Below, in pieces: positions 5,332 to 49,435 of a DNA stretch of 64,000 nt. Source of the stretch: Lachnospiraceae bacterium (GTDB lineage: Bacteria > Bacillota > Clostridia > Lachnospirales > Lachnospiraceae). Position 1 is the stretch's first letter; each line of letters begins with the position of its first letter. The stretch covers positions 33,478 through 97,477 of the forward strand of contig JBKECO010000031.1 in assembly GCA_047974745.1 (NCBI GenBank), given 5' to 3'. Made by a program: the position numbers and the translations under genes. The notes beneath the pieces were generated by a model. The model saw nothing but the letters and a program-made list of their open reading frames with translations, was not told the DNA's origin and did not search any database.

Positions 5332-5347
5332 ACCCATAGGAATTCAA

Positions 5348-12457: not shown

Positions 12458-12485
12458 GATTCTATCTTTCTTTAGCGATCTTTCT

Positions 12486-14182: not shown

Positions 14183-14213
14183 CTAAATCCTCCGGATAAT
14201 TATGATGCAGCAA

Positions 14214-15906: not shown

Positions 15907-16036
15907 AATGTACTCCTTCGAACTGGCTTGCTCGATATTCTTCAATCTGGCTATTTCGCTTATGCCAGATTTGCGGTATGCTTAGCGAAGCAACATCGTT
16001 TGATACCTACATTACAATTTAACATGAGGTGATTTT

Positions 16037-17634: not shown

Positions 17635-17657
17635 TACGTCTCCCTCCTGTCTGTCTT

Positions 17658-18293: not shown

Positions 18294-18348
18294 TTCTGCT
18301 CCGATCCAGTTCGTATATTTATATGCTTTTTCCATCGTATGATTTATA

Positions 18349-20252: not shown

Positions 20253-21271
20253 AGAACCACACCCTTCTCTCCATTCGTTATTTTGCCTACCACATAAGCG
20301 CTTTCTCCTGCTGACTCAATGGCAGCCACTGCCTCCTCCACATGTTCTGGATCTACTGCTAAAATCATTCCAAGTCCCATGTTATAAGTATTGTACATCA
20401 TGACATCCTCGATATTTCCTTCCTTTTGAATCAGTTGGAAAATTGGAGGTATAGGATAGCTTCCTTTATCTACATGAGCTGTTTTTCCTTCCGGAAGCAT
20501 TCTCGGTATGTTTTCATAGAATCCTCCACCTGTGATATGACTGCACGCTTTTATACGAATTCCAGACTCTTTAAGTTTCCGAAGAGCAGTGACATAAATT
20601 TTTGTAGGAGCAATCAAGGCTTCACCAAGGGTCATGCCGAGATCCTCATGGAAGGTGTTCAATGCTTCCACTGTCATGGGAAATACTTTTCTGACTAGTG
20701 AGAAGCCGTTAGAATGCACTCCGGATGAGGCCATGCCAATCAAAATATCTCCATCCTTTAATTCCTTGCCAGTAATGATGTCCTTCTCGTCAACAACACC
20801 AACCGCAAATCCTGCAAGATCATATTCCTCCTCAGGATAAAATCCCGGCATCTCAGCGGTTTCCCCACCAATTAATGCTGCATTCGACTGTCTGCATCCC
20901 TCTGCAACGCCGCTGACGATCGTAGCAATTTTCTCAGGATAATTTTTCCCACAGGCAATATAGTCAAGAAAGAACAGTGGTTCTCCGCCAGCGCAGGCGA
21001 TATCATTCACACACATTGCAACACAGTCGATCCCAATCGTATCATGTTTGTCCATAAGAAAGGCCAGCTTCAGTTTCGTTCCGACTCCATCTGTCCCAGA
21101 TACAAGTGTAGGCTTTTCCATGCTTTTAAAAGCTTCCATAGAAAAAGCTCCTGAAAATCCACCCAGGTTCGTGAGAACCTCTGGCCTCATCGTCGCCTGT
21201 ACATGCTTTTTCATTAACTCTACCGACTTATAACCGGCTTCTATATCCACTCCTGCATTTTTGTAATCCAT
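20246..21271 (-). CDS. purM: Phosphoribosylformylglycinamidine cyclo-ligase (AIR synthetase)
   Basis: The ATG at 21271 follows AGGAGG. The sequence begins [13 protein letters not shown] and contains DGVGTKLK. Confidence 0.92.
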
Positions 21272-37747: not shown

Positions 37748-40006
37748 TCAGACTCTCACCCGTATCGTCTTACTATAGGAACCATAGATTCTTTTACCAT
37801 TCTTCATGATATAGGATCTGGTTCTGATGTAGTATACTTTTTTCTTATTGAATTTTGAAATGATAACATGATCTTTTTTTTCGTTTTTAATATAGTAATT
37901 TTTCTTTTGTGAGGAAAAATCTCGTTTTCTGGAAATCTGTACCTGATATCCATCAGCCATGATATCTGTTTTTAGTTTTACCTTGATCTTACCATCTCCT
38001 GTAATCTCAGCCTTTGCTTTATTTCTTTTTGGCACCACAGTGAGCATTGCTTCTGCACTGCCATTTTCATCTGTCACCCTGATACGAACGATACCTGTTC
38101 GTTTGATCGTGACCTTTCCTGACCTCTTTCCGATTGTCGCTATTTTTCTATTCATGCTTTGATATTCAGGATTGCCTTCCAGATTTTGAACATCCAGATA
38201 AATGCATTTGTTTTTCTTATAGGATACTATTTTATCTGCTATGGAGAGTTCTTGTTTCACGACCTCAGGTTCTTCTGCTACCTCAACAGGTACTGGAAGA
38301 TCTGGCTTCACATACTCAGGTATATTTTTTCCAGGCTCTGCTTCCTCGATCGTGAAGAGAATATACATTGGACTAAAGTCATTATTTTTGTAGTTGTAAT
38401 AAAGTCCAATTCCCTCCACTACTATAGTAGCAATCCCTGCCCTGAAATTATGATAGTAATGGAGTGTATAATCCACATTTTCCTTAAGCAGAAGATTCTG
38501 ATATCTTATGATCGGTTTTGGACAGATGAATTCATCATCGTGTATCTTTTGTACTGGAATGGGATCCGCTTTTGCATCTGCAATGTGTGCCTGTACAATG
38601 ATTTCCATCTGCTCTTTTTTGATGATACCATCTTCCTCTACCTCTGCGTAAATTTGTGTAATACCTGGATATTTTCCAATCACATCCACACTATGATGTC
38701 TTATATCATTCAATTGTGCTATTTTAGGATCCTCTACTGACCATCTGACCGGATCTAAATAAGCCAGGCAGTCTTCCGGTAAAATTCGAACACCAATTGT
38801 AGCAGCCGCTTCACCGATTCGCGCAACGGTTCCATTGGGTACATAGATTTCCATTTCTGTCATCGGTTTCTTTATCACTAGGTTCAGCTGAATACTGTGA
38901 CCGCTCTCATCTTCGCCTGTAATAACGATTCTTCCTCCCTTCCTAGTACTAAGTAGACCATTCGACATGACGACAGCAGTCTCCGGATTGCTGCTAGTCC
39001 ATTTTATGGCATCTGTTGTGTCAGCAGGAAATATTTCCGCCAGCTCATAGAGTTTAACCATATCTTCAACATTACAGGTCAGCTCCATTTTGACGCTGCC
39101 ATCCACAAACTGCAGTTGAGTGGATGGATATCGTTCGATCATGACACTTACTTTATCCATTCCTGATGCGTATCCTGCCGTATCCTTCATCTTACTATCC
39201 AGCATTTCCTTGACAGAATCCAACTTTACCACATATGCAGACCCTATCGGCATGCCAAAAAAGATACCATCCAAATAATAAGCGGACTCTATCTTCGTCC
39301 TTTTTAAATACAAATGAAGGGGATTGACAAAATGGCAGAAGGATGCGGAAGAAAGGACATCGACAGTCTCAGGTACTATAATTTTCTTTAGGTATTTACT
39401 TTTCATAAAAGCGTACTGATGTACATAGTTGATTCCATTCGGAATAATATAATTCTCTCCTTCCCTTGAAGCAGGGTAGACCCAGATATTAGTACCAGCA
39501 TATAACACTCCATCTATGGAATAAAAGACTTCGCGGTTCGAGCCCGCTTCAATTGACCGCAGTGAGGGGACGAGGGAGAAAGCGATGGAAGATACTGCGC
39601 CAATGCTTTTTGGCAAAGTTAATGTTTCGATATTTCGCCGTTCCAGAAATGTACCGGAATTAAGTCCCATTACAATCATGTTCTGAGCAGTATCTGGAAT
39701 TGTTACATCAACATCATTGCCCAAATATCTCTCAACCCAAAGAAAATCTATTCCGCTGTATGTTTTGATCTCATATATAAAATCTCCCTCAGTAATCAGT
39801 CTTGGTTCTTCGGCTGTTCTCGAAAAGGATGAAGAAACTCTATCCAAAATTATTTCATCGCCCCGCATAAATTCGATGCTCTTCATATATTCTGAGTTCT
39901 GCATGACTTCGGCAGCCTGTACCTGCATTACATCCGTGCCTTGAATAGCAAGACCTGTAAATAGCATTAAGATCCATAATCCTTTAATTATCTTGAAGTA
40001 ATTCAT
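37748..40006 (-). CDS. Secreted surface protein with BspA-type leucine-rich repeats, Big_2 Ig-like domain(s) and an FN3-like C-terminus
   Basis: 752 aa with a signal peptide (ends ...VQAAE). LRR_5-like repeats are present (TLPKSIGAVSSIAFS...). A Big_2-like segment reads AIKWTSSNPETAVV. There is no LPXTG. The start overlaps the upstream gene by 23 nt. Confidence 0.75.
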   Translation of the reverse strand: MNYFKIIKGLWILMLFTGLAIQGTDVMQVQAAEVMQNSEYMKSIEFMRGDEIILDRVSSSFSRTAEEPRLITEGDFIYEIKTYSGIDFLWVERYLGNDVDVTIPDTAQNMIVMGLNSGTFLERRNIETLTLPKSIGAVSSIAFSLVPSLRSIEAGSNREVFYSIDGVLYAGTNIWVYPASREGENYIIPNGINYVHQYAFMKSKYLKKIIVPETVDVLSSASFCHFVNPLHLYLKRTKIESAYYLDGIFFGMPIGSAYVVKLDSVKEMLDSKMKDTAGYASGMDKVSVMIERYPSTQLQFVDGSVKMELTCNVEDMVKLYELAEIFPADTTDAIKWTSSNPETAVVMSNGLLSTRKGGRIVITGEDESGHSIQLNLVIKKPMTEMEIYVPNGTVARIGEAAATIGVRILPEDCLAYLDPVRWSVEDPKIAQLNDIRHHSVDVIGKYPGITQIYAEVEEDGIIKKEQMEIIVQAHIADAKADPIPVQKIHDDEFICPKPIIRYQNLLLKENVDYTLHYYHNFRAGIATIVVEGIGLYYNYKNNDFSPMYILFTIEEAEPGKNIPEYVKPDLPVPVEVAEEPEVVKQELSIADKIVSYKKNKCIYLDVQNLEGNPEYQSMNRKIATIGKRSGKVTIKRTGIVRIRVTDENGSAEAMLTVVPKRNKAKAEITGDGKIKVKLKTDIMADGYQVQISRKRDFSSQKKNYYIKNEKKDHVIISKFNKKKVYYIRTRSYIMKNGKRIYGSYSKTIRVRV

Positions 40007-43000
40007 GTTTTCCCTCTTTTCTCCCCTGTTCTAAAAATGTCTGATAGTACATTTCATTCGCCGTATTTGGTCCCAATTGTTTAATCCATTCCTGCATTTC
40101 CAGAATTTTTTCATGTGTGAATTCAAAACGACCTGCAAGATTCTCATATACTCCACTTCCCGGCACAGGGATCGGCGTGGCTCCTAGTGCCAATTCTGTT
40201 ACTCCTGGCTCGGTATATAAAATATCCTTTTTCTTTATATTCAGAACCTGCAGCAGATACTCTTGATACGCTCCCTCGCTCCAAATGGATGACGCATCCA
40301 CTGTCGGCAAAAAGTCCTTTGAAATGAACCGTGGATCGCCTAGATCGAAATTTTGTACTTCTGTATCAACAAGGAAAACGAAAATTGTTTTTTTCGAAAT
40401 ATTCCCCACCTGATCCGGCGCCTGGATCCAGATTGAAAAGCTGTCATCCGATTCGGCGCCGGTAAATTCAGTTTCCTGATAATCCAGGATCGCCTTCTCG
40501 CAGTTCGGCGTATCATCAAGAACCTGTATACAATCTAGAATATACTGCTCCGTCAATACTCCATTTCTGGCATCCTCCAGCGAAAAGTACAGATCTGATG
40601 CCAAAATCTGAGGGAAGGAATCCCATACTGCATAAAAATTAAGGAAAGGCATACGGTTTGTCGAAAACTCCTCGGGTATTGGCAACGGATCTTGTCCACC
40701 CTCTGCAGAATAATAGTCTGCTGAGGGTGCACCAATGGAAAGACCCATCTTATTAGAAAGATGCTTTTCATTTGAAGCCTCCGCAAACAGAATATGCCCA
40801 TGTACTGGATCCTTCGTATAAATCATACTGTCTCTTTGGGCATACCTGTCTTTTTCCAGGCTCCATCCAATCAGCTGATAGGGTATTGTCTCCAACATCT
40901 CATTTCCATTTATATCCGTAGAACTGCCTGTTCTAAGATCGATCGTCTGTCTCTCGTCATATTTTTCAAAATGCATACCGCCTGCTTGCGTATTACCCTT
41001 GTCGTTACTTGAAAACATCACAGAGTCAAATATAGAATCAATCTGCTCCAGATAATTACCTCCCGCATTCTGTCCATTGCCAATAAAAACGATCTGGAAT
41101 GAAGTATCCCACTGTGCATAGAGTACACAATCTCCGTTCTCTGTTATCTCATATACAGGGCGTTTCTTTGATAGAACAAGATCCTGCTCGCCGTTAATCT
41201 CTGGTGTGAGGCTCCATCCAAGGAATCGATATGCTTTCTCAAAGATAGGGTCTGTAACTCTTGCCTCCTCATAGTTGAGTGTCATACTTTTTCCTGTACT
41301 TTTCCATTGGATATCTGGTACCTTAACATTGCCAAGATTCACGACTGCCAGATCATTCTTATTTACGTTGCCAAGAAATCTGACAGCTTCATAGGGACGC
41401 CAATGGGCATGTACCGTTGTATCTGCAGCAAAATATGTAAATTCTGCATACCCGCCTATTTTTGAAAGCAGCTCTCCGTTCTGCCCAATGAAAGCGGTGC
41501 CTTTTCCCTCTTTTTCCGTAAAGTATCCCATGAACTGATATTTTCTTTTACCACCTGGAAGTGAAGAATCCTCAGCATATTTTATTGGAACTGTGATCCT
41601 ATTATTTAAAAAAATTTGATTTAATTCTTTATCTGCAAAATATCCGATAGTATATTTCTGATAAACATATTTTGTTGGCCTATTGCTTTGCTCACTACCA
41701 GGTGCATTTAGGTTTATTAAGAAAGTCCCTGGCATCCATACTGGTGTGAATACCACTGAGGTATTCGTGGTATAGGCAGATCCACATTGATATTCTTTTC
41801 CATCAGAACACTTCCAACCAGTCAGAATATATCCCCTTTTTGTGATCTGATCCTGCGCAGGTGTTCTTCCAGACCCACTACCCCATTCTGCGCTCAGGTC
41901 GATTGTAGCACCATGCACAGATGTGAGGTTTATAATAGACTGGTTTTCGGAAAAAAGTGTACTCCGGTCTCTTCTCCATCCCAAAAAACTTCTATATAGT
42001 GACTGGTTTCTGACAGAGGGATCTCGTGGGACTTCATCTGCTCCCAGCCTGAACTCTGCTGTTATAGGAAAGTTGAAATAATTCCTGGAAAGCCAGCTAC
42101 TCTTATTATAAACATGTGTTGTTGCAGCAGTCTTTCCCTTACCCCCACCCGGGTTATATTTTATGATATATTGATTTGGTGCAAAGTATCGCCTGACAGA
42201 CTGTGAATTTACAAGCTGCTTTGGTGCATAGTAATTAGCTTCTGTATCCGATTCAAAATGATACCCTGTATACGGAGATGAAATGCCCCACATTCTGCCT
42301 TGCACCAGAGTATCTGGGTATAGCCTCTTCATATTGATGCCAGAACTGCCTGCCTTTAGACCAGTATCAGAATAATAATCCTCAGATTTGGCTGTGACAG
42401 AATACGGTTTCTGATGTATTTTCGCTATGGCATGCACACTATTAGGATCATCGATCCATTTTACTCCATTGTGGATTGATCCTTGCCCCGTATTGGTCGC
42501 ATTGATCTGTAGTGTAAAACTTCTTCTCCTATCATCGATCTCAGCTTCAGATCGAAGCGTGTCCTTAGCTCCGGCAGAATTATTGATATCATATTCTCTT
42601 GTATTAAGCCTAAATCCTGATCGATAGTGCTCGATCGAAAACTTCTGATCATGGAACTCTTTCGTCAGATAGGAGAGATCAACCGTATATACACTATATT
42701 TCATATTTGTTTCGGCAGAATCTCCGCCCTGCTTTCTCTTCGAAGTACTGCGATCCAGCTTTAGATTAAAATAATCGGAAGGATTCAGGCTGCCATCCTG
42801 CCTGTATTTATTATCAATCGTCATTGTCACACGTCTGTCCTGATCTCCCGATGCATGGTTGATCAGATTGATCTTGTAATCTGTGCGGACATCTCCCCTT
42901 TGTGCAGGATCCTGACTGTAATAATAATTTCCACATGACATCTTAAGCCAAAAGTACCCACTCAAATGTCCAATATCCAGGCCGGCCGATGTGTGAAATT

Positions 43001-44246
43001 CTCCCAGATCCAGCGTGAGATAGTATTCATATTTTTTGGTACCCAGCACTATTGTGGGATCATTCGTCAAAAGAGGTTCCTTTAAATCTTCTAATCGATG
43101 AAGCAGCAGCTCCAGTTTATCCGAATTTGCCTGAACAAAACCAGCGATCTCTGTAATATCAGAATTCACATAGGCTCGTATCAGCTGATCCTCTGTACAG
43201 CTCTCCCAGTCCTTTAATGAAAGAAGTGTCCGTTCCGAGGTTTCTGCAGAAAAATTCACCCTGTTCCCTGCTATTTCAGCACCCAGATATCCATGCCCGG
43301 TATATAGATCCCATCCTTCGACACCCTGATCTGTTGCATCTTCCACCAGTCGACGTTCCAGTTCTTCGGGATTTAGATGAATTTCTTCTGATTTTATCAT
43401 AGCCGCAATGGCTGTTACCTGCGCTGCTGCATAGGAAGTACCTTCTTGCACCCCCTCTGGCTCCACTCCATCTGAGACAAAATCCAGTGTTTTTCCATAA
43501 TTGGAAAAATCCGCTCTCTGTCCATCCTTACCTAATGCTCCCACAACTATGACCTGGTCTAAATCAGACGGTGAGTAATTCATGGTATTTCCACCTTCAT
43601 TTCCAGCGGACACAATGACCGTAATTCCACTCTCGACTGCTAAAAGCAGTGACTCACTGATCTTTTCTGTTGTTTTTCCGGCTATGCTGTTCATACTAAG
43701 ATTAATAATGTGTACCCCTTCTGACATTGCCGCCTCAATTGCAAGCGAAACGGATTCAGCAGAAGCCTCACCCATTTGGTCAGCTGCTTTTATAGGCATG
43801 ATTTTTACATTTTCATCTGAGTAGGATGCAATGATTCTGCATATTTGAGAGCCATGACCATTTAAATCAAATACAGTGTCATCCTTTGTAAAATTGTAGT
43901 TGGTATGGAGCATTCTGTTATGTGGAATTGGAATGGACTCCGCTGCTCCTGTATCTATTACCCCAACGATTACATCTTTGCGCTTTTCTTCTTCGATTAC
44001 TGTGTTAGCTTCTATGTCTCTCCCCGATTCAACCTCTGATTCTTCTGTGCTTGGTACTGATCCTTCATCTGCCTCGTAAAAGTATTCTTGCACTGAATTT
44101 ATATTTGAATCTTTAGAAATTTTATAGACTCCCTTCTCACCCCTGAGATCTGCATACGTTCTAAGAGAATCACTCCCAGAGGAAAGAAGTTCGACAAGTA
44201 TCATCAACGTACAAATCAGCCTTGTGATCACTTTTTTCATATTCAA
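39984..44246 (-). CDS. Giant secreted S8 (subtilisin-like) serine peptidase with multiple Listeria-Bacteroides (InlB B-type) repeats
   Basis: 1420 aa with a signal peptide. The catalytic triad context is VGVIDTGA / NGHGSQ / GTSYAAA. Downstream aromatic-GW/GY repeat motifs are FLGWRRD, LTGWKCSDG, FMGYFTEKEG, FLGWSLTPE and LIGWSLEKD. There is no sortase motif. Confidence 0.85.
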   Translation of the reverse strand: MNMKKVITRLICTLMILVELLSSGSDSLRTYADLRGEKGVYKISKDSNINSVQEYFYEADEGSVPSTEESEVESGRDIEANTVIEEEKRKDVIVGVIDTGAAESIPIPHNRMLHTNYNFTKDDTVFDLNGHGSQICRIIASYSDENVKIMPIKAADQMGEASAESVSLAIEAAMSEGVHIINLSMNSIAGKTTEKISESLLLAVESGITVIVSAGNEGGNTMNYSPSDLDQVIVVGALGKDGQRADFSNYGKTLDFVSDGVEPEGVQEGTSYAAAQVTAIAAMIKSEEIHLNPEELERRLVEDATDQGVEGWDLYTGHGYLGAEIAGNRVNFSAETSERTLLSLKDWESCTEDQLIRAYVNSDITEIAGFVQANSDKLELLLHRLEDLKEPLLTNDPTIVLGTKKYEYYLTLDLGEFHTSAGLDIGHLSGYFWLKMSCGNYYYSQDPAQRGDVRTDYKINLINHASGDQDRRVTMTIDNKYRQDGSLNPSDYFNLKLDRSTSKRKQGGDSAETNMKYSVYTVDLSYLTKEFHDQKFSIEHYRSGFRLNTREYDINNSAGAKDTLRSEAEIDDRRRSFTLQINATNTGQGSIHNGVKWIDDPNSVHAIAKIHQKPYSVTAKSEDYYSDTGLKAGSSGINMKRLYPDTLVQGRMWGISSPYTGYHFESDTEANYYAPKQLVNSQSVRRYFAPNQYIIKYNPGGGKGKTAATTHVYNKSSWLSRNYFNFPITAEFRLGADEVPRDPSVRNQSLYRSFLGWRRDRSTLFSENQSIINLTSVHGATIDLSAEWGSGSGRTPAQDQITKRGYILTGWKCSDGKEYQCGSAYTTNTSVVFTPVWMPGTFLINLNAPGSEQSNRPTKYVYQKYTIGYFADKELNQIFLNNRITVPIKYAEDSSLPGGKRKYQFMGYFTEKEGKGTAFIGQNGELLSKIGGYAEFTYFAADTTVHAHWRPYEAVRFLGNVNKNDLAVVNLGNVKVPDIQWKSTGKSMTLNYEEARVTDPIFEKAYRFLGWSLTPEINGEQDLVLSKKRPVYEITENGDCVLYAQWDTSFQIVFIGNGQNAGGNYLEQIDSIFDSVMFSSNDKGNTQAGGMHFEKYDERQTIDLRTGSSTDINGNEMLETIPYQLIGWSLEKDRYAQRDSMIYTKDPVHGHILFAEASNEKHLSNKMGLSIGAPSADYYSAEGGQDPLPIPEEFSTNRMPFLNFYAVWDSFPQILASDLYFSLEDARNGVLTEQYILDCIQVLDDTPNCEKAILDYQETEFTGAESDDSFSIWIQAPDQVGNISKKTIFVFLVDTEVQNFDLGDPRFISKDFLPTVDASSIWSEGAYQEYLLQVLNIKKKDILYTEPGVTELALGATPIPVPGSGVYENLAGRFEFTHEKILEMQEWIKQLGPNTANEMYYQTFLEQGRKEGKHELLQDN

Positions 44247-44258
44247 ACCCTTCTCCCG

Positions 44259-44885
44259 TTAATTAAATTTTGCCGTAAATACCCGATCTCCATGCAGTAT
44301 AACAGCTGATCCTTCCTGATCTGTTGCGACCTCCCTCTTAACACCTGTCACATCACCTGTCTCGGTCAAAAATGTCTGCGCATTTCCTGTTTCATTCGTC
44401 CAGCCAAGAAAGGATTGTCCAGATCGTGCTGGATCCTTTGGTTTTGGTATGTGAGAACCTTCTTCAAGACCATATTGCTTATAGATATCACCTGTAGGAT
44501 ACAGATAGGTCACTGTATAATTTACCGGTTCAAACTCTATTTCACGATCCAGAATAATGGTACGGAGTTCAGAAATTCTTCCTATTTTTCCATTTGGATA
44601 AGAATATGTCATAAGTACATCAGCCGATAGAATACCCATTTCTGGATCCGCAGATAGAATTTCGACCTTTAGATCAGATTCACTGTGTATTCCAGATATA
44701 AGACTTTGCATGAAAATAGAAATGAATTCCTCCTGGGACATTCCACCATCATCCTGTACCAAAGCAAGCTCACGAATCGTCAGATCCAAAGCTGCCGCAA
44801 GCTCCTGTCGCAGTTCATTTTCCCGAAGGGTCTTAGAAGAAACAGATAGGAGCATAACAAAGCCAAGAAGAATGGATACAAACAA
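44259..44885 (-). CDS. Membrane-anchored protein with one Listeria-Bacteroides-type repeat
   Basis: 208 aa with a TTG start after GGGGGA. It has an N-terminal hydrophobic helix and the C-terminal motif GQSFLGWTNETGNA. Confidence 0.6.
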   Translation of the reverse strand: MFVSILLGFVMLLSVSSKTLRENELRQELAAALDLTIRELALVQDDGGMSQEEFISIFMQSLISGIHSESDLKVEILSADPEMGILSADVLMTYSYPNGKIGRISELRTIILDREIEFEPVNYTVTYLYPTGDIYKQYGLEEGSHIPKPKDPARSGQSFLGWTNETGNAQTFLTETGDVTGVKREVATDQEGSAVILHGDRVFTAKFN

Positions 44886-44899
44886 AATTCCCCCATATA

Positions 44900-45403
44900 T
44901 TATGTGCCTGATACGAACACCTCCCGTGCACCCAGAATGGGAATCCGGAAAAACACTGTCGTTCTTTTTCCACGATCATCTTGTGCACTGACTCGAATTT
45001 TATAGACCCCGGCTGTCGGAAAGCGAAAACTGTTTTGATTTTCTGCATCTGGGATCCAAAGACTGTTTCCCTCTGCATCCCAGATGTCATGAATTTTTAT
45101 GACAACATTTTCACTTTTATAATCCACTCCATAGAACCAGTGCTCCAGATCATAGTCCTGATCAGCAAATGCATTTTCCCGCATGTAAAATATATCTGGA
45201 TTCCCAACTTCCACCTTGACCTCCGGTCGCATATGACCAGTAAGATTGTTCCTGCGTACTGTTTGTGTTATACGATCAGCAAACACCGGTATCAGTCCTT
45301 TCCTCCCCTGAATATCTACAGCATTAAAAATCAAAAACAGTATGGCCGTGCCTGCTGCGATCGAAATTACAACTCTTCCATATTCTTGAAATAATAGCTT
45401 CAT
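44900..45403 (-). CDS. Flp-like minor pilin/pseudopilin with a C-terminal beta-rich (Ig/PKD-like) domain
   Basis: 167 aa. The N-terminus MKLLFQEYGRVVISIAAGTAILFLIF carries the EYG-plus-hydrophobic-helix motif shared with three neighbouring small ORFs. The C-terminus GVYKIRVSAQDDRGKRT is PKD-like. Confidence 0.6.
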   Translation of the reverse strand: MKLLFQEYGRVVISIAAGTAILFLIFNAVDIQGRKGLIPVFADRITQTVRRNNLTGHMRPEVKVEVGNPDIFYMRENAFADQDYDLEHWFYGVDYKSENVVIKIHDIWDAEGNSLWIPDAENQNSFRFPTAGVYKIRVSAQDDRGKRTTVFFRIPILGAREVFVSGT

Positions 45404-45415
45404 GTTTCCTCCCTG

Positions 45416-45547
45416 CTAAACGATCCTTTGTCCCCAAATATATAGAAACTGCCAGAGCAGTCCGTTTCTTTCTATCATAGCTGCAATGACAGAAATGATA
45501 CCGATGGTCGCACTTGCAGCCAATATCATTCCCCCATATTCCTCCAT
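45416..45547 (-). CDS. Small Flp-like pilin (43 aa), below the ORF-track length cutoff
   Basis: Hand-translated as MEEYGGMILAASATIGIISVIAAMIERNGLLWQFLYIWGQRIV. It fills an otherwise empty gap inside a tightly packed operon. An alternative TTG start lies 12 nt upstream, after GAGGGTG. Confidence 0.5.
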   Translation of the reverse strand: MEEYGGMILAASATIGIISVIAAMIERNGLLWQFLYIWGQRIV

Positions 45548-45579
45548 TACTTCTGTCAACCTATTCACCCTCTCTCGAA

Positions 45580-45684
45580 CTAAGAAGTTAACATGTTTAA
45601 TATAATTCCAAGCGCCAGAAACATAGAAGCACCAGTAATCATATACAACAATGCTGATCCATATTCTTCCATTATTTTCCTCAT
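45580..45684 (-). CDS. Small Flp-like pilin (34 aa), below the ORF-track length cutoff
   Basis: Hand-translated as MRKIMEEYGSALLYMITGASMFLALGIILNMLTS. A GAGGT RBS lies about 9 nt upstream. The gene starts 8 nt after the upstream stop. Confidence 0.5.
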   Translation of the reverse strand: MRKIMEEYGSALLYMITGASMFLALGIILNMLTS

Positions 45685-45691
45685 GTGTACC

Positions 45692-46063
45692 TTACCTCGT
45701 ATATCCTCTGAAGGTACAATTAATCTCATCAGAAAAAGGATTCGGCCTATACAAAAAAGTCAGCTGGACTTCAGCCATCTTTATCTTTGCAGGCATGGAT
45801 CCACCACTATTGTCTGCTATAATAGCCTGCCCTTTTTCATCATACCCTTGTACATTCAGAAGATAATTTCTATTCTCTGCCTCCTGAATACAGTTGCTCA
45901 TCACATTACTGTCAAAGTCACTGTTTTCCAAAACAGAGATAACATCATTTTTAAAATCCTGTGCATTTGAAACCTCAATCTGAGCACCAAGCATCCCCCC
46001 TGCTGTAAATAAAAAGAAAATCAACATGAAGAATCCAAGGTATATTTTAATGACTACCTCCAT
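45692..46063 (-). CDS. Membrane-anchored pilus-accessory protein (DUF4320/TadE-like position)
   Basis: 123 aa with a GGGAGGAGGGG RBS, an N-terminal hydrophobic helix, and a small globular domain. Confidence 0.5.
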   Translation of the reverse strand: MEVVIKIYLGFFMLIFFLFTAGGMLGAQIEVSNAQDFKNDVISVLENSDFDSNVMSNCIQEAENRNYLLNVQGYDEKGQAIIADNSGGSMPAKIKMAEVQLTFLYRPNPFSDEINCTFRGYTR

Positions 46064-46075
46064 ATCCCCTCCTCC

Positions 46076-47503
46076 CTACGTGCTTATTGATCCAAGATAG
46101 GAAATGACCAGAAAACTCATATCCGCCATCATTTTCAGCATTCCGAGAAAAGCCGGAACTAAGAACAAAAGATACATGGCTGCCATCTTGTCTTCATTGA
46201 TTAAACTTTCAGACTGCAGTAACAGTTCTCTGTTTCTCTCTAAAATCTCGCCTGTCTGCTGCTGTACATCTCCGCTTCCCTGCGTGACAGCATAGAGCAT
46301 GCCCATTGCTGAGGTTATCTCAGGAATTGAAAATTCTTTTAAAAACTCAGTATATGGATAGTTGGATTCTGGATATTCCTGAATCTGGATCCATAATCTT
46401 CTGATAGCCGGCTGTAGAACCGGTTCTGAAACATTCATGCTTTTTTGAATCGATATTGCTACATTTTCTGTCTGCATCAGAAGGGAAAGTTCTGTGATCC
46501 ATTGTGGAAAAAATTTTCGAATCTCCCGACTGGCACTTTTTTTCACAAGATGAAATCCTAGTTGATGCTGCATAAAAAGTATAGATGAAAGTGCCGCCAT
46601 GAAGCCGGATAAAACTTTTAACCCAGTAATCCAAAGAGCAGCGGAAACCAAAGCTGCACCGGTGCCTGCTATCAGACTGGTGCGCATTTCTTTCTTTTTA
46701 TTGAAATTCTTTACTTTCCAGTAGAGCTCTTCTCCATTTCTCTTCTTCCGGTTTCCATGCTCCTGCTGGGATTTTAAAATCTTCTTCTCAGCCTGAATAT
46801 AAACGACAAGTTCAAGAGTGATGTATAGCAGTGTTGAGAGCTGATAGACAAGAGAATTAGTAAATTCGGCATTTTTCGTCACTTTTGAAGTGAAAATTGG
46901 AGTGATCAGGCATAGTAGTGACGATAGCACAATAGACATTAGAACATTTCTTTTTCCCTGCCTGCAACTATTTTGATATACACGACTCTGCTTCTCCCAG
47001 ATATTTCTGTCAGCAAGTAGGACCACAATGGCACTTTCATATTCTCCGCCGTGCTTCTCAACATTTAACATGAGTCTGTGAATACTGTTCATTCTCTGAT
47101 TTGGGTATTCCTTTTCCATCATTTGTAATGCCTTTTGTTGAACATCTTGCTCAGTATAGGCCGTTTTTAAAAAATGGACAGCTCTGCCTATCACCCGTTT
47201 CATTTTTCCCTCAGAAAAAATTCGTTCAACATCTGTGAGGGCATTACCTATTTTGGGATTCATGCGAAAGCTATATAGTATCTGCTCCATATATAAATTG
47301 ACATCGAGAAAATCCTGTTCAAATGCTTTTGTTCTGCACTGTATCCCACGCAGTATACATGCAAAGACCAGTACTTCTGCGATCGAAACAATTAAAAACA
47401 CATGGGTTAGCTGAAACAGTTTGCCCAATACAGTGGCGGCGATCATCACAAATAGAAAGAATGGGATGTCTGATTTTTGAAACCGTTGCCCTGGTCTACC
47501 CAT
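46076..47503 (-). CDS. Type II secretion system F-family platform protein (fused TadB/TadC-like)
   Basis: The ATG at 47503 follows AGGAGG and overlaps the ATPase gene stop by 8 nt. The protein is polytopic with two T2SSF-like halves. Confidence 0.7.
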   Translation of the reverse strand: MGRPGQRFQKSDIPFFLFVMIAATVLGKLFQLTHVFLIVSIAEVLVFACILRGIQCRTKAFEQDFLDVNLYMEQILYSFRMNPKIGNALTDVERIFSEGKMKRVIGRAVHFLKTAYTEQDVQQKALQMMEKEYPNQRMNSIHRLMLNVEKHGGEYESAIVVLLADRNIWEKQSRVYQNSCRQGKRNVLMSIVLSSLLCLITPIFTSKVTKNAEFTNSLVYQLSTLLYITLELVVYIQAEKKILKSQQEHGNRKKRNGEELYWKVKNFNKKKEMRTSLIAGTGAALVSAALWITGLKVLSGFMAALSSILFMQHQLGFHLVKKSASREIRKFFPQWITELSLLMQTENVAISIQKSMNVSEPVLQPAIRRLWIQIQEYPESNYPYTEFLKEFSIPEITSAMGMLYAVTQGSGDVQQQTGEILERNRELLLQSESLINEDKMAAMYLLFLVPAFLGMLKMMADMSFLVISYLGSIST

Positions 47504-48560
47504 CCGAATCCTCCTTTGCAGCTGGATTTGCAAAGTAATCCGTGATTCCCTTCTGATTCATTTTCAGGCTGATTTCTTCCGGAAGTGTATTTGTCAGAAG
47601 CTTTCCCTGATCTACCAGCATAAATAGTCGGTTCTGATTCTGAGAGCGAGTATATAAGCATATCTGGTCAATGTATCGCCTGATCTCCCCATCTGGAAAC
47701 ATTTTCTTACAAAGAAGAACACCTACGTCAACATAGCTGTAAATATCATTGATGATTCTCTGTGACTCAGTGTCATTCTCCATCATATTCAAAAGTCTCT
47801 CAGGTATCTTCTTGACAGAATCCGTGTGAAGTGTTGTGAATCCCTTGATTCCTGTACTCCAACATGTCAGCAGTGCTCTTGCCTCTGTTGATCTTACTTC
47901 CGAAAGCATGAGCCAGGAGGGGTTCATTCGTAGAGATGTTTTGATTGCTTTTGTATAATCCATTCTGCGATTTACTTTGATCTCTACCGCATCGTTATTC
48001 GGATTGATTTTTTTATAGTGAAGCTCAGGGTTATCCTCGATCGTGATTACTTTTTCATTGACGGGAATGAACTGAGACAAAAACTTGGCACATTCTGTCT
48101 TACCAGCTGCAGGCTCCCCACAAAAAACAAAATTCATCTTTGCCGCCACACAATTAATCAGAAATGCGAGAACTTCACGGCTGGCATAGCTATTTGAAAT
48201 TGCATCCCCAACAGAGAATCTGAGTGCCGGTAGTGACTTTCGTATGCAAAAACTTCTGCCCGTCACCGCAACAGATTCATGAATCATTGTGATTCGCAAG
48301 GTCTCCGTTTCTGCTTCTAGAACTGTTTCTGCTGCATTAAAATGACAGCTGACTTCATTCGCAATGATCGAAGTGAACTTCTCAAGAAATCCTTTTTCGA
48401 TCTGCTGCTTTGCGCATTCGACCTGATAACGGACATTATCCGTAGTTGTCACCCAAAGCTCTGATCCGTTATAGTCAACATCTGTGATGGATTCATTCTG
48501 AATATAGGATGTCAGAATTCCGAATACATCTGAATTAATCGGAAGAGATAGTTTTTGCAA
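47496..48560 (-). CDS. CpaF/TadA (VirB11-like) secretion ATPase
   Basis: Walker A is GEPAAGKT, the Asp box is ITIEDNPELH, Walker B-like is WLMLSEVRSTEA, and the His box is TTLHTDS. The TTG at 48560 lies 7 nt after GGAGG. The longest ORF starts at the TTG at 48578. Confidence 0.85.
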   Translation of the reverse strand: MQKLSLPINSDVFGILTSYIQNESITDVDYNGSELWVTTTDNVRYQVECAKQQIEKGFLEKFTSIIANEVSCHFNAAETVLEAETETLRITMIHESVAVTGRSFCIRKSLPALRFSVGDAISNSYASREVLAFLINCVAAKMNFVFCGEPAAGKTECAKFLSQFIPVNEKVITIEDNPELHYKKINPNNDAVEIKVNRRMDYTKAIKTSLRMNPSWLMLSEVRSTEARALLTCWSTGIKGFTTLHTDSVKKIPERLLNMMENDTESQRIINDIYSYVDVGVLLCKKMFPDGEIRRYIDQICLYTRSQNQNRLFMLVDQGKLLTNTLPEEISLKMNQKGITDYFANPAAKEDSDG

Positions 48561-48574
48561 TTCTCTACCTCCCC

Positions 48575-48760
48575 TCAAGGCGTCCCAAGTCCAGCGGCCT
48601 GATTTGCACTTGCGTAAAAATTATTGATCAGATCGGCAAATGCTTTATATACAATGCTGTTGGTATCATCTCCTATCACCAGTGTCACAATGCCTACAAT
48701 AGCAAGCACTCCGATCACTGCAATAATAGTCTGTCCGTATTGTTTGAAAATTTCTTCCAT
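48575..48760 (-). CDS. Flp-like pilin (61 aa), probable major subunit
   Basis: The ATG at 48760 lies 7 nt after AAGGAG. The sequence is MEEIFKQYGQTIIAVIGVLAIVGIVTLVIG followed by a short hydrophilic tail. Confidence 0.6.
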   Translation of the reverse strand: MEEIFKQYGQTIIAVIGVLAIVGIVTLVIGDDTNSIVYKAFADLINNFYASANQAAGLGTP

Positions 48761-49317
48761 AACTGTTCTCCTTCGTATAATTTTCGAATTATAAATTGTA
48801 TCGATTCCCAAGCTATATTTATCTCACAGCTTAGTTGATGCATTCCATCTTGATTTCCTCTTCTCAAATCAGATTTCCCAGTGAATGATTTTTTTTCCAA
48901 TAAAAACGGGATCCTGGTGTCGTATGGAATAAACGCAGTATCATTCGCTGAAAGCTTAAATAAATTACAAAAATGGGTGATTTTTTTTGTTTCCATGGGA
49001 GTAAATTTTCCAATGAAAAGCATTCTGCGCTGACTGCGCAATGGATATTTCTGAAAGAATTGCTCCAGCCCAGTACTGGACTGATTTGTGTTTAAGATTA
49101 AAAGGTCAGCCGTTTGGATCAGCTCTCGCTGATGCAGGCTGCTTTGACCTCCCGTATCTGTTAGAACATGATTTAGCTTGGCCATGTGCCAGAACTCTGA
49201 TGGATCACAACAGAAAATAAGTGGTTCGATATTCGTGTGATTCCATACTGAATGAAAAAAACGCAGATTCGTACTAGTCCCGGTGCCTTCGCAAACTCCG
49301 TGAAATACAATTTTCAT
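48715..49317 (-). CDS. ParA/MinD-fold protein with degenerate P-loop (CpaE/TadZ-like position), first gene of the operon
   Basis: 200 aa. The N-terminus MKIVFHGVCEGTGTSTN resembles a deviant Walker A, but both lysines are replaced. Confidence 0.45.
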   Translation of the reverse strand: MKIVFHGVCEGTGTSTNLRFFHSVWNHTNIEPLIFCCDPSEFWHMAKLNHVLTDTGGQSSLHQRELIQTADLLILNTNQSSTGLEQFFQKYPLRSQRRMLFIGKFTPMETKKITHFCNLFKLSANDTAFIPYDTRIPFLLEKKSFTGKSDLRRGNQDGMHQLSCEINIAWESIQFIIRKLYEGEQLWKKFSNNTDRLLLQ

Positions 49318-49406: not shown

Positions 49407-49435
49407 ATCATACTATTTAAAAGTGCAAATGTAAA
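49407..49435 (-). promoter_or_regulatory. Candidate sigma-A promoter of the Tad-like operon
   Basis: Minus strand reads TTTACA, a 17-nt spacer, then TATGAT. It is about 90 nt upstream of the first ATG. Confidence 0.4.

Follow-up and report, generated by a model that had tools for sequence, protein, structure and literature searches.

A stripped-down, uncharacterised relative of Tad pili predicted from an eleven-gene operon of a Lachnospiraceae bacterium

The operon and its products

The window, a stretch of 64,000 nucleotides from a Lachnospiraceae bacterium, contains a block of eleven ORFs between positions 37748 and 49317, all of them on the minus strand (Table 1). An earlier note on this DNA had described these genes as a Tad/Flp-like operon, and each ORF was found where it had been placed. 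The genes overlap or are separated by gaps of about 30 nt at most, as computed from the most likely start codons. The overlaps are 46 nt for g01/g02, 8 nt for g03/g04 (47496-47503) and 23 nt for g10/g11 (39984-40006); the gaps are 12 nt for g04-g05, 7 nt for g05-g06 and 12 nt for both g07-g08 and g09-g10. Other junctions depend on the choice of start: g02-g03 is a 14-nt gap with TTG 48560 and a 4-nt overlap with TTG 48578, g06-g07 is a gap of 20 nt with TTG 45559 or 32 nt with ATG 45547, and g08-g09 is a 14-nt gap that becomes a 13-nt overlap when g09 starts at ATC 44912. The latter two of the three overlaps had been reported correctly, but the upper limit of 15 nt given for the gaps is slightly exceeded at g06-g07. 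A promoter-like site precedes the block, no Rfam element was found in the leader upstream of g01, and terminator-like matches within the block are not in excess of the shuffle expectation.

Table 1. Features of the operon, with positions in the window
Feature	Positions	Strand	Description	Basis or remark
Promoter-like site	49407..49435	-	TTTACA-17-TATGAT, ~90 nt upstream of g01	Consensus scan, pattern match only
g01	48715..49317	-	200-aa cytoplasmic protein	P-loop-like motif G-T-S-(A/T)-N-M, conserved, without lysine
g02	48575..48760	-	61-aa putative major subunit; MEEIFKQYG, hydrophobic helix, short C-terminal tail	Family conservation
g03	47496..48560	-	T2SSE-family hexameric-type ATPase	354 aa from TTG 48560; 360 aa from 48578
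g04	46076..47503	-	Polytopic platform protein (predicted)	475 aa from ATG 47503; 485 aa from TTG 47533
g05	45692..46063	-	123-aa pilin-like protein; MEVVIKIYLG, TM, ~90-aa domain	Related to DUF4320 / pLS20 gene 40
g06	45580..45684	-	34-aa mini-pilin (putative); MRKIMEEYG, single hydrophobic helix	Homologues annotated as genes
g07	45416..45559	-	Mini-pilin (putative); MTEVMEEYG...	47 aa from TTG 45559; 43 aa from ATG 45547
g08	44900..45403	-	167-aa modular pilin-like protein; MKLLFQEYG, TM, PKD/Ig-like domain	Motif conservation, weak PKD match
g09	44259..44912	-	Pilin-like protein with Flg_new domain	Flg_new 1.4e-6 (Pfam)
g10	39984..44246	-	1420-aa Sec-signal protein; S8 subtilase head, Flg_new-like repeats, C-terminal module
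S8 catalytic domain of g10	43290..43979	-	Residues 90-319	Peptidase_S8 1e-29; lineage-specific head
C-terminal module of g10	40212..40679	-	Residues ~1190-1345	Bact_surface_Ig-like domain, then VRFIS...S.W motif
g11	37748..40006	-	752-aa Sec-signal surface protein	LRR_5 / Big_2 (Pfam)

The g03 gene encodes an assembly ATPase of the branch that includes the Tad, archaeal-pilus and VirB11 enzymes. It has a Walker A motif (GEPAAGKT), an Asp box (ITIEDNPE) and a His box (TLHTD), and it matches Pfam T2SSE at 9e-19; its best partial NCBIfam matches, each under its own cut-off, are VirB11, TadA, TrbB and FlaI. When the family profile was compared with the PDB, VirB11 (94 bits), CpaF (81) and archaeal GspE (78) scored far above PilB, GspE and PilT. 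Foldseek placed CpaF at the top of the PDB matches to the AF2 model (pLDDT 88; 1.9e-23, TM 0.69-0.75), followed by FlaI, archaeal GspE and then VirB11 (1e-19). The earlier reading of a type IV filament-like operon built around a T2SSE ATPase is thereby supported, with the enzyme in the CpaF/VirB11/archaeal clade. TTG 48560 is the likely start, being preceded by GGAGG and giving the length of a 354-aa homologue (P0001).

The platform is encoded by g04, whose 475-aa product, as annotated at NCBI (P0121), starts at ATG 47503. The protein consists of two tandem copies of a TM-cytoplasmic helical bundle-TM unit, with about seven hydrophobic segments, and the internal duplication is detected by hhalign (84%, E 7e-6). 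The g04 sequence has no match in Pfam, NCBIfam or the PDB; among its homologues, weak Pfam matches are most often to T2SSF (9 of 40). The AF2 model is all-helical (pLDDT 87), and Foldseek found nothing in the PDB for the full model. However, the family profile aligns with six TadB/TadC proteins over residues 304-427 (hhalign 94.9%, E 4.3e-8). We therefore retain the T2SSF assignment of the earlier note, which Pfam does not give for the window protein, and regard g04 as a fused, internally duplicated TadB/TadC-like platform whose T2SSF homology is visible only by profile-profile comparison.

Four pilin-like proteins had been counted previously. There are six, because g05 and g09, which had been called an accessory and an anchored protein, respectively, have the same N-terminal design as g02, g06, g07 and g08, namely M-x5-[EQ]-[YF]-G or a close variant with a hydrophobic helix right after it. 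A basic leader and a standard cleavage site are missing from all of them, and in all six families the maximal ORF begins at the motif Met in most of the distinct sequences (38 of 66 for g02), which rules out a leader for these families. The segment before the helix is acidic, which is unusual for an N-in membrane anchor. Three of the proteins carry C-terminal domains (PKD/Ig-like in g08, Flg_new in g09 and a domain of ~90 aa with no recognised fold in g05), so that an N-in/C-out topology fits, as in pilins.

Homology of these proteins to known pilins cannot be demonstrated from their sequences. They have no match to Pfam Flp_Fap or TadE, N_methyl scores only 0.043, and the scores of a pilin-family HMM against Flp sequences were not above those of shuffles. 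The label 'Flp-like' is not supported by these tests; the likeness lies in the EYG motif and the architecture. A prepilin peptidase was also sought nearby: Peptidase_A24 is absent from the eight loci labelled with Pfam, and neither the window nor about 90 loci contain a GxGD[VI]K motif. Such an enzyme could be supplied by a gene at another site in the genome, with cleavage following the conserved Gly.

Homologues of g02 occur in 80 of the 84 loci fetched for comparison, always just upstream of the ATPase gene, and the strict motif M-x6-[YF]-G is present in 70 of 89 family matches; the window gene has a GGAG Shine-Dalgarno sequence 6 nt upstream. Homologues of g05 occur in 78 of the 84 loci, with the N-terminal consensus M-S-Q-V-I-K-x-[FY]-x-G, and g05 aligns with plasmid DUF4320-type proteins (hhalign 82.8%, E 9e-6). 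The mini-ORFs g06 and g07, which the ORF track had missed, are real genes, as the earlier note had proposed, since homologues lie at the matching position in many loci and are gene-called in independent assemblies (g06 as 35, 42 and 33 aa in L001, L003 and L091; g07 as 47-50 aa in L001, L003 and L090). The TTG start of g07 gives the family spacing M-x5-E-Y-G and has the Shine-Dalgarno sequence GAGGGTGA upstream. The PKD match of g08 is weak (0.056); when 144 small module proteins of mixed families were scanned, 7-8 of them again gave PKD/PKD_4 matches. Finally, g09 is probably a 217-aa protein from ATC 44912 (I/M-RHIIYGG...) rather than a 208-aa protein from TTG 44885: a GGGAGG Shine-Dalgarno sequence lies 7 nt before the ATC, IIYGG is in frame, and the family consensus is M-K-x-x-[IV]-[FY]-G.

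The conserved module and its lineage-specific additions

The system is not rare. No fewer than 560 species-level genomes carry the module, the majority of them from Lachnospiraceae and Clostridium, and the platform family comprises 972 clusters at 50% identity; the system is widespread in these two groups and common in gut Clostridia. Carriers that can be grown in culture include Lachnospiraceae bacterium 38-14, Roseburia sp. 1XD42-69, Petralouisia muris, Anaerosporobacter mobilis and Clostridium tyrobutyricum, the last with an element-borne copy. Identical gene order recurs in the 84 loci, which puts the block far beyond chance, but this conservation covers the core of the eleven-gene block and does not extend to g01, the S8 head of g10 or g11.

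Downstream of the pilin set, the system almost always ends in one large Sec-exported protein with a conserved C-terminal module of ~160 aa, which can be regarded as its signature. An iterated HMM finds this module in one gene per locus in 60 of the 84 loci, and the gene is always that of a large signal-peptide protein immediately downstream of the pilin genes; in L031 the module is split across two adjacent ORFs. PF16403 matches 8 of 46 members, and the PDB gives an Ig-like match at 5e-5. The heads of these proteins vary (S8, ALK_LTK_GRD, CBM, GBS_Bsp-like) on a common Flg_new stalk. In the window the S8 head has an intact catalytic triad by sequence (D98/H131/S271), and the closest relative has a homologue of 1542 aa. 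Neither g10 nor g11 has an LPXTG-type sorting signal.

The S8 head, g01 and g11 are lineage-specific extras outside the conserved module. Of the 84 loci, only about 12 have an S8 head and only seven have g11-like matches. At L090, an orthologous locus that is likewise flanked by DegV and CNNM, all three are missing; the closest sequenced relative has no LRR gene, and g11 is absent from L001/L002, where the CNNM gene directly follows the S8 gene. The absences of the S8 head and g11 from L090, and of g11 from the closest relative, argue that these two are not part of the conserved system. Consequently, while the domain calls of the earlier note (Peptidase_S8, Flg_new, LRR_5 and Big_2) are upheld, its tie between the filament and two very large secreted proteins is reduced to one protein with the C-terminal module. 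As for g01, homologues were found in 13 of the 84 loci (phmmer E<=1e-3), plus a few more by inspecting ORFs upstream of the pilin gene; it is an accessory gene found only in a subclade. It has no match in Pfam or NCBIfam, and its family profile, from an alignment of 16 sequences, has none in the PDB. It had been called ParA/CpaE-like; hhalign comparisons with Mrp/ParA-type and plasmid TadZ-like ATPases align the P-loop in register and are not statistically significant.

The flanking genes in the window, L090 and L001/L002 are housekeeping genes (DegV, AspRS, HisRS and RelA; CNNM and glycogen phosphorylase), and no relaxase, VirB4, VirD4 or integrase was seen there. A relative with a 55%-identical ATPase has the module at the same DegV/CNNM site, and conservation of position over this distance indicates vertical inheritance. 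Clostridium variants adjoin DUF961-DUF961-FtsK genes, or an actin-like partition gene, plus defence cargo.

Comparison with described systems

The literature search found no paper that describes this system, in keeping with the novelty suggested for it earlier. The operon appears to be a stripped-down, uncharacterised relative of the Tad pili in the type IV filament superfamily. Its resemblance to the Tad/Flp (type IVc) systems, such as CpaF-CpaG-CpaH-PilA of Caulobacter and TadA-TadB-TadC-Flp1 of Aggregatibacter, includes the ATPase, whose fold is closest to CpaF, the platform homology, a very small major subunit (about 55-60 aa) with an E/Q-Y-G motif starting the hydrophobic helix, several minor pilin-like proteins and the arrangement of all genes in one operon. 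However, it lacks both a nearby prepilin peptidase (TadV/CpaA) and a G/XXXXEY cleavage site; its subunits start only six residues before [EQ]-[YF]-G and eight before the helix. TadB and TadC are fused, g03 is short (354 aa) and without the N-terminal extension of CpaF, and there is no secretin, TadD, RcpC/CpaB or recognisable TadZ. Moreover, the window proteins are not detected by the Pfam models Flp_Fap, TadE and T2SSF, and the module includes a dedicated giant secreted protein. The lack of a secretin, a nearby prepilin peptidase and a sortase signal had been noted before.

Among described systems, the nearest relatives are the 'VirB11' modules found on plasmids of the pLS20/pXO2 type and, by its described gene content, a Tad-like cluster with a fused platform in TANB77. 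The plasmid block (pLS20 genes 34-41, pAW63/pXO2 CDS 16-26 and plasmids of E. faecium, Listeria and Lactococcus) includes the closest annotated relatives of g03, which are 27-31% identical over 82-94% of its length and come from conjugative plasmids of Enterococcus, Listeria, Bacillus (pXO2/pAW63, pLS20 gene 37), Lactococcus and Brochothrix. The gene order is shared: after the ATPase gene come genes for polytopic proteins that have TM segments at both ends, for a DUF4320-type protein of 120 aa anchored at its N-terminus and for ~47-aa peptides with a single helix, and a large surface adhesin is encoded alongside. However, the plasmid block sits inside a T4SS operon with VirB4, VirD4, VirB6 and VirB8, whereas the window module stands alone among housekeeping genes; the plasmid platform is split over two genes (~270-aa polytopic proteins), the plasmid peptides lack the M-x5-EYG motif, and the plasmid adhesin is upstream and of the thioester or isopeptide type. 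In the published gene listing the block consists of a 'putative VirB11' plus unknowns (PMC8557374); according to a 2025 review, Gram-positive T4SSs are without VirB11 (PMC12857230).

TANB77, an uncultured gut Clostridia clade, has a cluster with a CpaF/TadA-type ATPase, one platform protein in which TadC and TadB are fused, several short 'pilin-like' proteins in a row, each with a single TM segment and no detectable sequence homology, and a large terminal protein (PMC11680825). That cluster differs in having CpaB, TadZ and CpaE homologues, a 640-aa ATPase, a 693-aa platform and pilin-like proteins of 143-237 aa; neither a leaderless EYG motif nor a conserved C-terminal cargo module is reported for it.

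The motors of archaeal type IV pili and archaella (FlaI-FlaJ, GspE2) are also similar, in that the g03 model fits FlaI and archaeal GspE no less well than CpaF and that g04, like FlaJ, is a single polytopic protein with two repeats. However, the host here is bacterial, and archaeal subunits have class III signal peptides, absent here, that are cut by PibD/FlaK/EppA after a basic residue plus Gly/Ala. The tip-associated PilY1/PilC adhesins and the modular pilins known from Streptococcus sanguinis are a parallel in concept: a large protein of several domains, or pilins onto which domains are grafted (here Ig-like on g08 and Flg_new on g09), is encoded together with minor pilins and presumably sits on the filament. 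No sequence or domain relationship is known, and the docking module here would be the Ig-like domain plus the VRFIS motif.

Possible functions

With some caution, we lean towards reading the operon as a minimal machine, complete in itself, for type IV filaments in monoderm Clostridia, with leaderless subunits, that serves one cognate large protein. The hexameric-type ATPase g03 would dock onto g04, and together they would lift the small membrane-anchored subunits from the bilayer into a short pilus or pseudopilus, with g02 as the shaft and g05-g09 (g06 and g07 as bare-helix peptides) priming or capping it. All six would be made without a conventional class III leader; as M-x5-[EQ]-[YF]-G sits directly on the hydrophobic helix, a dedicated prepilin peptidase may not be needed, and processing would be at most a non-canonical cut at the conserved Gly. 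The filament would keep the large Sec-exported protein at the cell surface or drive it through the thick wall, and synteny suggests their coupling, presumably by recognition of the Ig-like + VRFIS module. The cargo here would carry an active-looking S8 subtilase head, with the co-translated LRR/Big_2 adhesin appended.

The same genes could instead form a type II secretion-like pseudopilus, a piston that pushes g10 (and g11) through the peptidoglycan and releases it, with no display on a pilus. One major and five minor pilin-like proteins are the T2SS pseudopilus pattern, two bare-helix subunits could not decorate a fibre, and the large protein, with a Sec signal peptide and no wall-anchoring signal, has an enzyme as its head in the window lineage. 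We nevertheless consider this unlikely, as g03 groups with CpaF, FlaI and VirB11 and not with the GspE/PilB type, and the heads are mostly adhesin-like repeats (Flg_new, Ig, CBM) rather than enzymes. A strictly conserved C-terminal module would be expected as a docking handle in either case, so it does not separate display from release.

We are more doubtful that the operon is a mating or cell-cell contact apparatus, that is, a chromosomal, domesticated 'VirB11' block of Gram-positive conjugative plasmids and ICE-like elements, with a role in aggregation or donor-recipient contact and not in host or substrate adhesion. The ATPase relatives, the DUF4320 / pLS20 p40 relationship of g05, the neighbours of the Clostridium variants and the matching plasmid order (large adhesin, small TM proteins, ATPase, polytopic pair, DUF4320 protein, ~47-aa peptides) would all fit, but the housekeeping flanks free of conjugation genes and the vertical inheritance do not, and the plasmid block itself has no assigned function (PMC8557374). 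Least probable to us, by a little, is that there is no filament and that ATPase, polytopic protein and small hydrophobic proteins together make up a complex embedded in the membrane, whose subunits stay in the bilayer. Such a complex could be a machine for insertion or quality control, or the large protein's channel. All characterised partners of a T2SSF platform and a CpaF/FlaI-clade ATPase are helical filaments of N-terminal-helix subunits, and six paralogous single-helix proteins with one motif, three of them with C-terminal domains, are the classic major/minor pilin pattern. In favour of this reading, no sequence test for pilin families picks up the subunits, two of which are only 34-47 aa long; leader and peptidase are both absent, and the platform model has no structural match in the PDB.

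If the minimal-filament reading is true, this module may serve gut Clostridia to display or export large adhesins and enzymes.

Layout and surroundings of the block

The eleven minus-strand open reading frames described in the earlier note were all found, with small start-codon corrections. In order of transcription they are g01 (a 200-aa protein), g02 (a 61-aa putative major subunit), g03 (an ATPase), g04 (a platform protein), g05 to g09 (minor pilin-like proteins), g10 (a 1420-aa S8 protease) and g11 (an LRR_5/Big_2 protein). All of the junctions are tight, although the gaps reach ~30 nt and not the 15 nt first claimed. The likely g03 start is a TTG located 7 nt after a GGAGG, in agreement with the near-identical 354-aa database protein P0001, and the likely ATG start of g04 agrees with P0121, a 475-aa NCBI protein named '[Lachnospiraceae bacterium] hypothetical protein'. 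This g04 start reproduces the 8-nt g03/g04 overlap noticed originally. A TTG is the better start for g07, and g09 apparently begins at a rare ATC codon with a perfect GGGAGG Shine-Dalgarno sequence 7 nt upstream; the N-terminus typical of its family (..IIYGG) lies in frame ahead of the first canonical start. These g07 and g09 starts are preferred because no others restore the N-terminal motif conserved in each family. Automatic ORF callers would shorten g09 by 9 residues and miss the pilin-like motif.

One promoter-like site precedes the block, terminator-like matches inside it show no excess over shuffle expectation, and an Rfam search of the operon leader found no riboswitch or other RNA element. 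Genes for DegV, AspRS, HisRS, a radical-SAM protein, an MBL hydrolase and RelA/SpoT flank one side, and CNNM/CorC, glycogen phosphorylase and pyrimidine genes flank the other. A mobile-element origin of the window copy is unsupported, as these flanks are housekeeping genes. The glycogen phosphorylase and g11 are each exactly 752 aa and their genes lie 1.5 kb apart; the proteins are unrelated and the equal lengths are a coincidence. The sole Rfam and tRNA matches in the 64-kb window are a full-length Clostridiales-1 sRNA (RF01699, 129 bits) and the tRNA-Gly(GCC) gene adjoining it.

Positions of features in the window and in fetched homologous loci (L numbers)
Feature	Record	Position	Strand
tRNA-Gly(GCC) gene	window	1497-1569	-
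Clostridiales-1 sRNA	window	1669-1833	+
Glycogen phosphorylase ORF	window	33986-36244	-
g11 ORF	window	37748-40006	-
g09, in-frame N-terminus ahead of first canonical start	window	44886-44912	-
g09, apparent ATC start	window	44912	-
g07, TTG start	window	45559	-
g04, ATG start	window	47503	-
g03, TTG start	window	48560	-
Diversity-generating retroelement	L001	1000-5900	
Clostridium module	L003/L004 and L085	~4800-9300 and ~16600-21000	
Tandem module copies	L069	~9800-15500 and ~15700-19900	
Upstream Mrp/NBP35 gene (examples)	L020, L025, L030, L034, L039-L043, L046, L048, L051, L053, L060, L062, L064, L068, L074	300-900 nt upstream of pilin gene	

Motor, platform, subunits and large proteins

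Only T2SSE, Flg_new, S8, LRR_5 and Big_2 pass when all eleven proteins are searched against Pfam and NCBIfam; the pilin-like proteins, the platform and g01 are blank. The T2SSE match belongs to g03 (9e-19), which has a Walker A motif, an Asp box and a His box and is thus an ATPase of the T2SSE/PilB-CpaF-FlaI family, as expected of the TFF superfamily. Its NCBIfam matches (VirB11, TadA-type, TrbB and FlaI) are partial and sub-threshold. Against PDB, the g03 family profile scores 94 bits with VirB11, 81 with CpaF, 78 with archaeal GspE and 63 with FlaI, and ~40 or less with PilB, GspE and PilT. Foldseek matches the AlphaFold model (pLDDT 88) best to CpaF (1.9e-23, TM 0.69-0.75), followed by FlaI, archaeal GspE and then VirB11 (1e-19). 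These profile scores and model matches would place g03 in the CpaF/archaeal/VirB11 branch, outside the PilB/GspE branch. For the original description as a CpaF-type ATPase, the closest fold is that of CpaF, but the sequence profile ranks VirB11 over CpaF. A SpoIIIA-like reading was dropped, with no NCBIfam SpoIIIAA match, as was a ComG-like one (ComGA 54 bits where the cut-off is 300, and no ComG-type leaders).

The window g04 protein has no match in Pfam, NCBIfam or, by family-profile HMM search, PDB sequences, and Foldseek of its confident model against PDB yields nothing beyond non-specific helical matches, VirB6 (E=1.9) among them. Four lines of evidence from sequence and model nevertheless favor a TadB/C-type platform. 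Among g04 homologues, weak matches are most often to T2SSF (9 of 40), and the two halves of g04 are mutually homologous (hhalign 84%, E 7e-6), an internal duplication. The model (pLDDT 87) shows a helical bundle between TM segments twice over, and the family profile aligns over 122 columns with six TadB/TadC proteins of plasmid Tad loci (hhalign 94.9%, E 4.3e-8), four of them Pfam T2SSF-positive. The fused TadB/C-like platform proposed earlier is thus favored by this alignment and by the repeat, but not by the direct searches, and a T2SSF platform as in the TFF superfamily is recognized at the profile-profile level only. Comparisons (hhalign) of the g04 family with E. coli HofC alone and with two E. 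faecium plasmid p38/p39-like proteins were not significant. The family is discrete and comprises 972 clusters in a profile search of 1.84 billion representatives.

The four pilin-like proteins of the earlier note hold, but the count is six (g02 and g05 to g09), with one N-terminal design common to all. Each family starts with M-x5-[EQD]-[YF]-G or a close variant, without a basic leader, and ~20 hydrophobic residues directly follow the motif. The N-terminus is M-K/x-E-I-F-x-[EQ]-[YF]-G in g02, g06, g07 and g08, M-S-Q-V-I-K-x-[FY]-x-G in g05 and M-K-x-x-[IV]-[FY]-G in g09. Among distinct sequences, the maximal ORF begins at the motif Met in 38 of 66 for g02, 23 of 30 for g06, 11 of 17 for g07, 28 of 39 for g08, 49 of 59 for g05 and 41 of 53 for g09, so that a longer leader is impossible in those sequences. 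The C-terminal domains are PKD/Ig-like in g08, Flg_new in g09 and ~90 aa without a known fold in g05; the Ig-type and Flg_new domains are typical of surface proteins, which fits the N-in/C-out topology of pilins.

A Gly(-1)/Glu(+5) cleavage site is absent from the six families, and the class III signal peptide of the TFF superfamily (basic leader, Gly -1, Glu5) is likewise lacking (N_methyl 0.043, sub-threshold). No Peptidase_A24 is annotated within +/-10 kb at eight Pfam-labelled loci, and the A24 motif GxGD[VI]K occurs neither in the 64-kb window nor in ~90 loci. Thus, the loci examined lack the prepilin peptidase of the superfamily, as had been claimed. The Flp-like label for g02 is not supported: Flp_Fap has no match in the window protein and is outside the 25 commonest Pfam families (E<=0.5) of 144 small module proteins, 36 of them g02 homologues, and the g02 HMM scores Caulobacter and Aggregatibacter Flp sequences no better than shuffles. 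The (E/Q)YG motif is similar to the N-terminus of mature Flp pilins, a resemblance only. No Flp-family major pilin of the Tad/Flp-pilus kind was thus recognized in the block. TadE and Tad-domain families are also outside the 25 commonest among the scanned homologues, and no TadE/TadF or TadG was recognized; g05 to g09 may be their functional analogues.

The first gene, g01, was thought to be ParA/CpaE-like. It has a conserved P-loop-like motif without the lysine, but its family profile has no match in PDB and no significant similarity to ParA/MinD/TadZ proteins; hhalign was not significant against Mrp-type proteins (E 0.045, probability 1%) or against plasmid TadZ-like ATPases (E 0.13), and the attribution is not supported. 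The gene is missing from most of 84 fetched loci. In one large subclade, a gene for an Mrp/NBP35-type P-loop ATPase (GKGGVGKS) is conserved upstream of the pilin gene; this neighbor probably reflects conserved chromosomal synteny, but it may have a ParA-like partner role.

Of the two large proteins, g10 has a Sec signal, a Peptidase_S8 domain (1.1e-29, residues 90-319) with D98, H131 and S271 in canonical motifs, which is the Asp-His-Ser triad of a subtilase, Flg_new-like repeats and a C-terminal module. The other, g11, combines a Sec signal with LRR_5 and Big_2 domains. A sortase signal is absent from both, as stated originally. The C-terminal module, characterized from locus sequences, consists of a Bact_surface_Ig-like domain and then a conserved 'VRFIS...S.W...W.FT' segment, and a protein-database search with the C-terminal 271 aa of g10 gave no matches. 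An iterated HMM (g10 residues ~1190-1345) detects it in a single gene per locus at 60 of the 84 loci, always in the last large protein; most of the other 24 are truncated contigs. A stretch of unresolved residues divides this gene into two neighboring ORFs at L031. Ahead of the C-terminal module, Flg_new repeats are common to the large proteins, whose heads vary (S8, ALK_LTK glycine-rich, CBM or GBS_Bsp-like).

Relatives on chromosomes and mobile elements

More than 900 close relatives of g03 are present in a word-indexed protein database, and a scan of one genome per species gave at least 560 module loci. Among the matches listed, the great majority of carriers are Lachnospiraceae (Roseburia, Agathobacter, Eubacterium, Petralouisia and many MAGs), together with Clostridium, Anaerosporobacter and Lachnotalea. 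The 84 fetched loci have a constant order: pilin, ATPase, platform, g05, (g06), (g07), g08, g09 and then a large signal-peptide protein. Only loci of the subclade nearest the window have the S8 head and g01. The operon of Lachnospiraceae bacterium 38-14, the closest relative sequenced (ATPase 61% identical), ends at the S8 protein; CNNM is directly next and there is no LRR gene. Locus L090 (ATPase 55% identical) occupies the same site, between RelA...HisRS-AspRS-DegV and CNNM, without g01, the S8 domain or the LRR gene, and its last gene encodes a 726-aa Flg_new protein. By these comparisons, the conserved core is nine genes, and the S8 domain, g01 and the LRR/Big_2 gene are lineage-specific additions. 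Hence the eleven-gene system in which protease and LRR protein were hard-wired to the filament is reduced to its conserved core.

Some individual loci display unusual features. For example, a Lachnobacterium MAG (L069) has two tandem copies of the module, the second more divergent (ATPase 239 bits versus ~360 in other loci). A relative of 38-14 (L001) has a diversity-generating retroelement (mtd-like target protein, bAvd and RVT_1 reverse transcriptase) just upstream of the module, with an endolysin beside it, presumably a prophage end; another strain (L002) has neither. The module in a record labelled 'Thermoguttaceae bacterium LCP21S3_D1', a planctomycete name (L010), hardly differs from the one in a Roseburia MAG (L009), with equal gene lengths and near-identical peptides; mislabelling or contamination of this record is probable.

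In C. tyrobutyricum and C. sporogenes, the module is beside DUF961-DUF961-FtsK/SpoIIIE genes, which lie upstream (Tn916 orf23-21-like) in an integrated element adjoining a TRAM/tRNA-U5-methyltransferase gene. The element carries an MT-A70 methylase and downstream defence cargo, a Cap4 nuclease in one strain and OLD-TOPRIM plus UvrD helicase (Gabija-like) in another, and within 10 kb there is no visible VirB4. Another Clostridium-type locus has the module after an actin-like partition gene. Two unannotated 'Bacteriophage sp.' records from human faeces (MT837507.1 and MT835474.1) have ATPase genes whose products match g03 at 45-49% identity over 93% of its length; the module may be borne by phage-like elements, or the two contigs may come from bacteria or mobile elements.

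A PLSDB search places 'CpaF/VirB11 family' proteins of Gram-positive conjugative plasmids nearest to g03 among annotated ATPases; most are 27-31% identical over 82-94% of the query, those of pXO2-type and a few other plasmids 23-26%. The hosts are E. faecium, Listeria, Brochothrix and Lactococcus, along with pLS20-like B. subtilis and pXO2/pAW63-type Bacillus plasmids. In fetched plasmid loci and in the pAW63 gene table (PMC1196294), the VirB11 blocks follow the same logic as the module: a large surface adhesin, anchored proteins of 120-140 aa, a ~50-aa peptide and the ATPase, and further two ~270-aa polytopic proteins, a DUF4320 protein and ~47-aa peptides. In addition, g05 aligns with DUF4320/p40 proteins (hhalign 82.8%, E 9e-6). 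Plasmids of E. faecium (pA10290_P3, L087), B. subtilis (pLS20-like, L089) and B. thuringiensis (L095) have, inside their transfer operons, a Tad-like block of a CpaF/VirB11-type ATPase, two TadB/C-like polytopic proteins, a DUF4320 protein and ~47-aa single-helix peptides, adjoining a large adhesin gene; the pLS20-like plasmid has two identical copies of the single-helix peptide.

The component VirB4 is the only ubiquitous T4SS marker. Neither the operon nor its annotated flanks in the window, in L001/L002 or in L090 showed VirB4, VirD4, VirB6 or VirB8, the set expected of a VirB/D4 T4SS; g03 resembles the VirB11 of such systems, yet it pairs with a T2SSF-type platform. In pLS20, gene 37 is listed as a 'putative VirB11', genes 36 and 38-41 are of unknown function, and the plasmid is stated to encode no pilus components (PMC8557374); a 2025 review has VirB11 absent altogether from Gram-positive T4SSs (PMC12857230). 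From these gene comparisons, we read the window module as a putative free-standing sister of the plasmid VirB11/DUF4320 block (pLS20 genes 36-41 type), not as a member of it.

Proposed function and significance

The generic TFF superfamily is defined by an ATPase, an inner-membrane platform and pilins (Denise et al. 2019, PMC6668835). By motor and platform, the module is a predicted member; it appears to lack the pilins and peptidase of the superfamily and to add a conserved, putative cargo-docking module. Its parts list, homologies and conservation are established by bioinformatic analysis, and from them we infer polymerization, lack of processing and coupling to the large protein.

We consider it somewhat better than an even bet that the block encodes a minimal type IV filament with unprocessed subunits and a docked large protein. 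The g03 ATPase and the fused g04 platform would build a short fibre from g02, which the five minor subunits would prime or cap, all of them used without conventional processing. The filament would hold its cognate large protein, or push it through the wall, with docking via the C-terminal module. The same parts might instead act as a T2SS-like piston that releases the large protein, which we regard as unlikely. A device for cell-cell or mating contact with an ancestry in mobile elements, to which the plasmid and Clostridium relatives are pertinent, seems quite improbable for a block with these chromosomal neighbors, and a non-filamentous membrane complex is slightly more improbable still.

Returning to the minimal filament, no published description of the module was found in literature searches, as the earlier note had supposed. 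Tad systems are generically stated to occur in Clostridia (PMC6668835), and the literature includes a canonical TadV-containing Firmicute tad operon (PMC12786226) and a divergent Tad-like cluster of clade TANB77 in which TadC and TadB are fused (PMC11680825).

Leader processing forms part of the definition of the superfamily and of its detection by tools such as MacSyFinder. To our knowledge, no type IV filament so far described can do without either a class III leader or a dedicated prepilin peptidase. A large conserved clade with neither would change the definition, and would explain why these genes are annotated only as 'ATPase, T2SS/T4P/T4SS family' and hypothetical proteins. A bolder and rather doubtful proposal is that this is the first type IV filament with leaderless, ready-to-assemble subunits and no prepilin peptidase, that its plasmid sisters are the missing Gram-positive conjugation 'pilus' and that the Lachnospiraceae copy was repurposed. 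If so, the sisters (pLS20 genes 36-41, pXO2/pAW63, enterococcal, listerial and Clostridium ICE-like) would be mini-filaments presenting a large adhesin for mating contacts, and the chromosomal version would present enzymes and adhesins to the gut environment. The link to pLS20/pXO2-type 'VirB11' blocks offers a testable hypothesis for conjugation genes listed as unknown.

Several of the most abundant butyrate producers in human and animal guts are Lachnospiraceae, Roseburia and Agathobacter/Eubacterium among them, and little is understood of how they attach to mucus, fibre or one another. A machine tied to one giant, rapidly diversifying surface protein could be a monoderm route for very large proteins without a sortase signal, and the diversifying heads (protease, lectin-like or repeat) on a common stalk and docking module suggest a general solution for display or export. 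In conclusion, the module is widespread in key gut commensals, and it would challenge a defining feature of type IV filaments.
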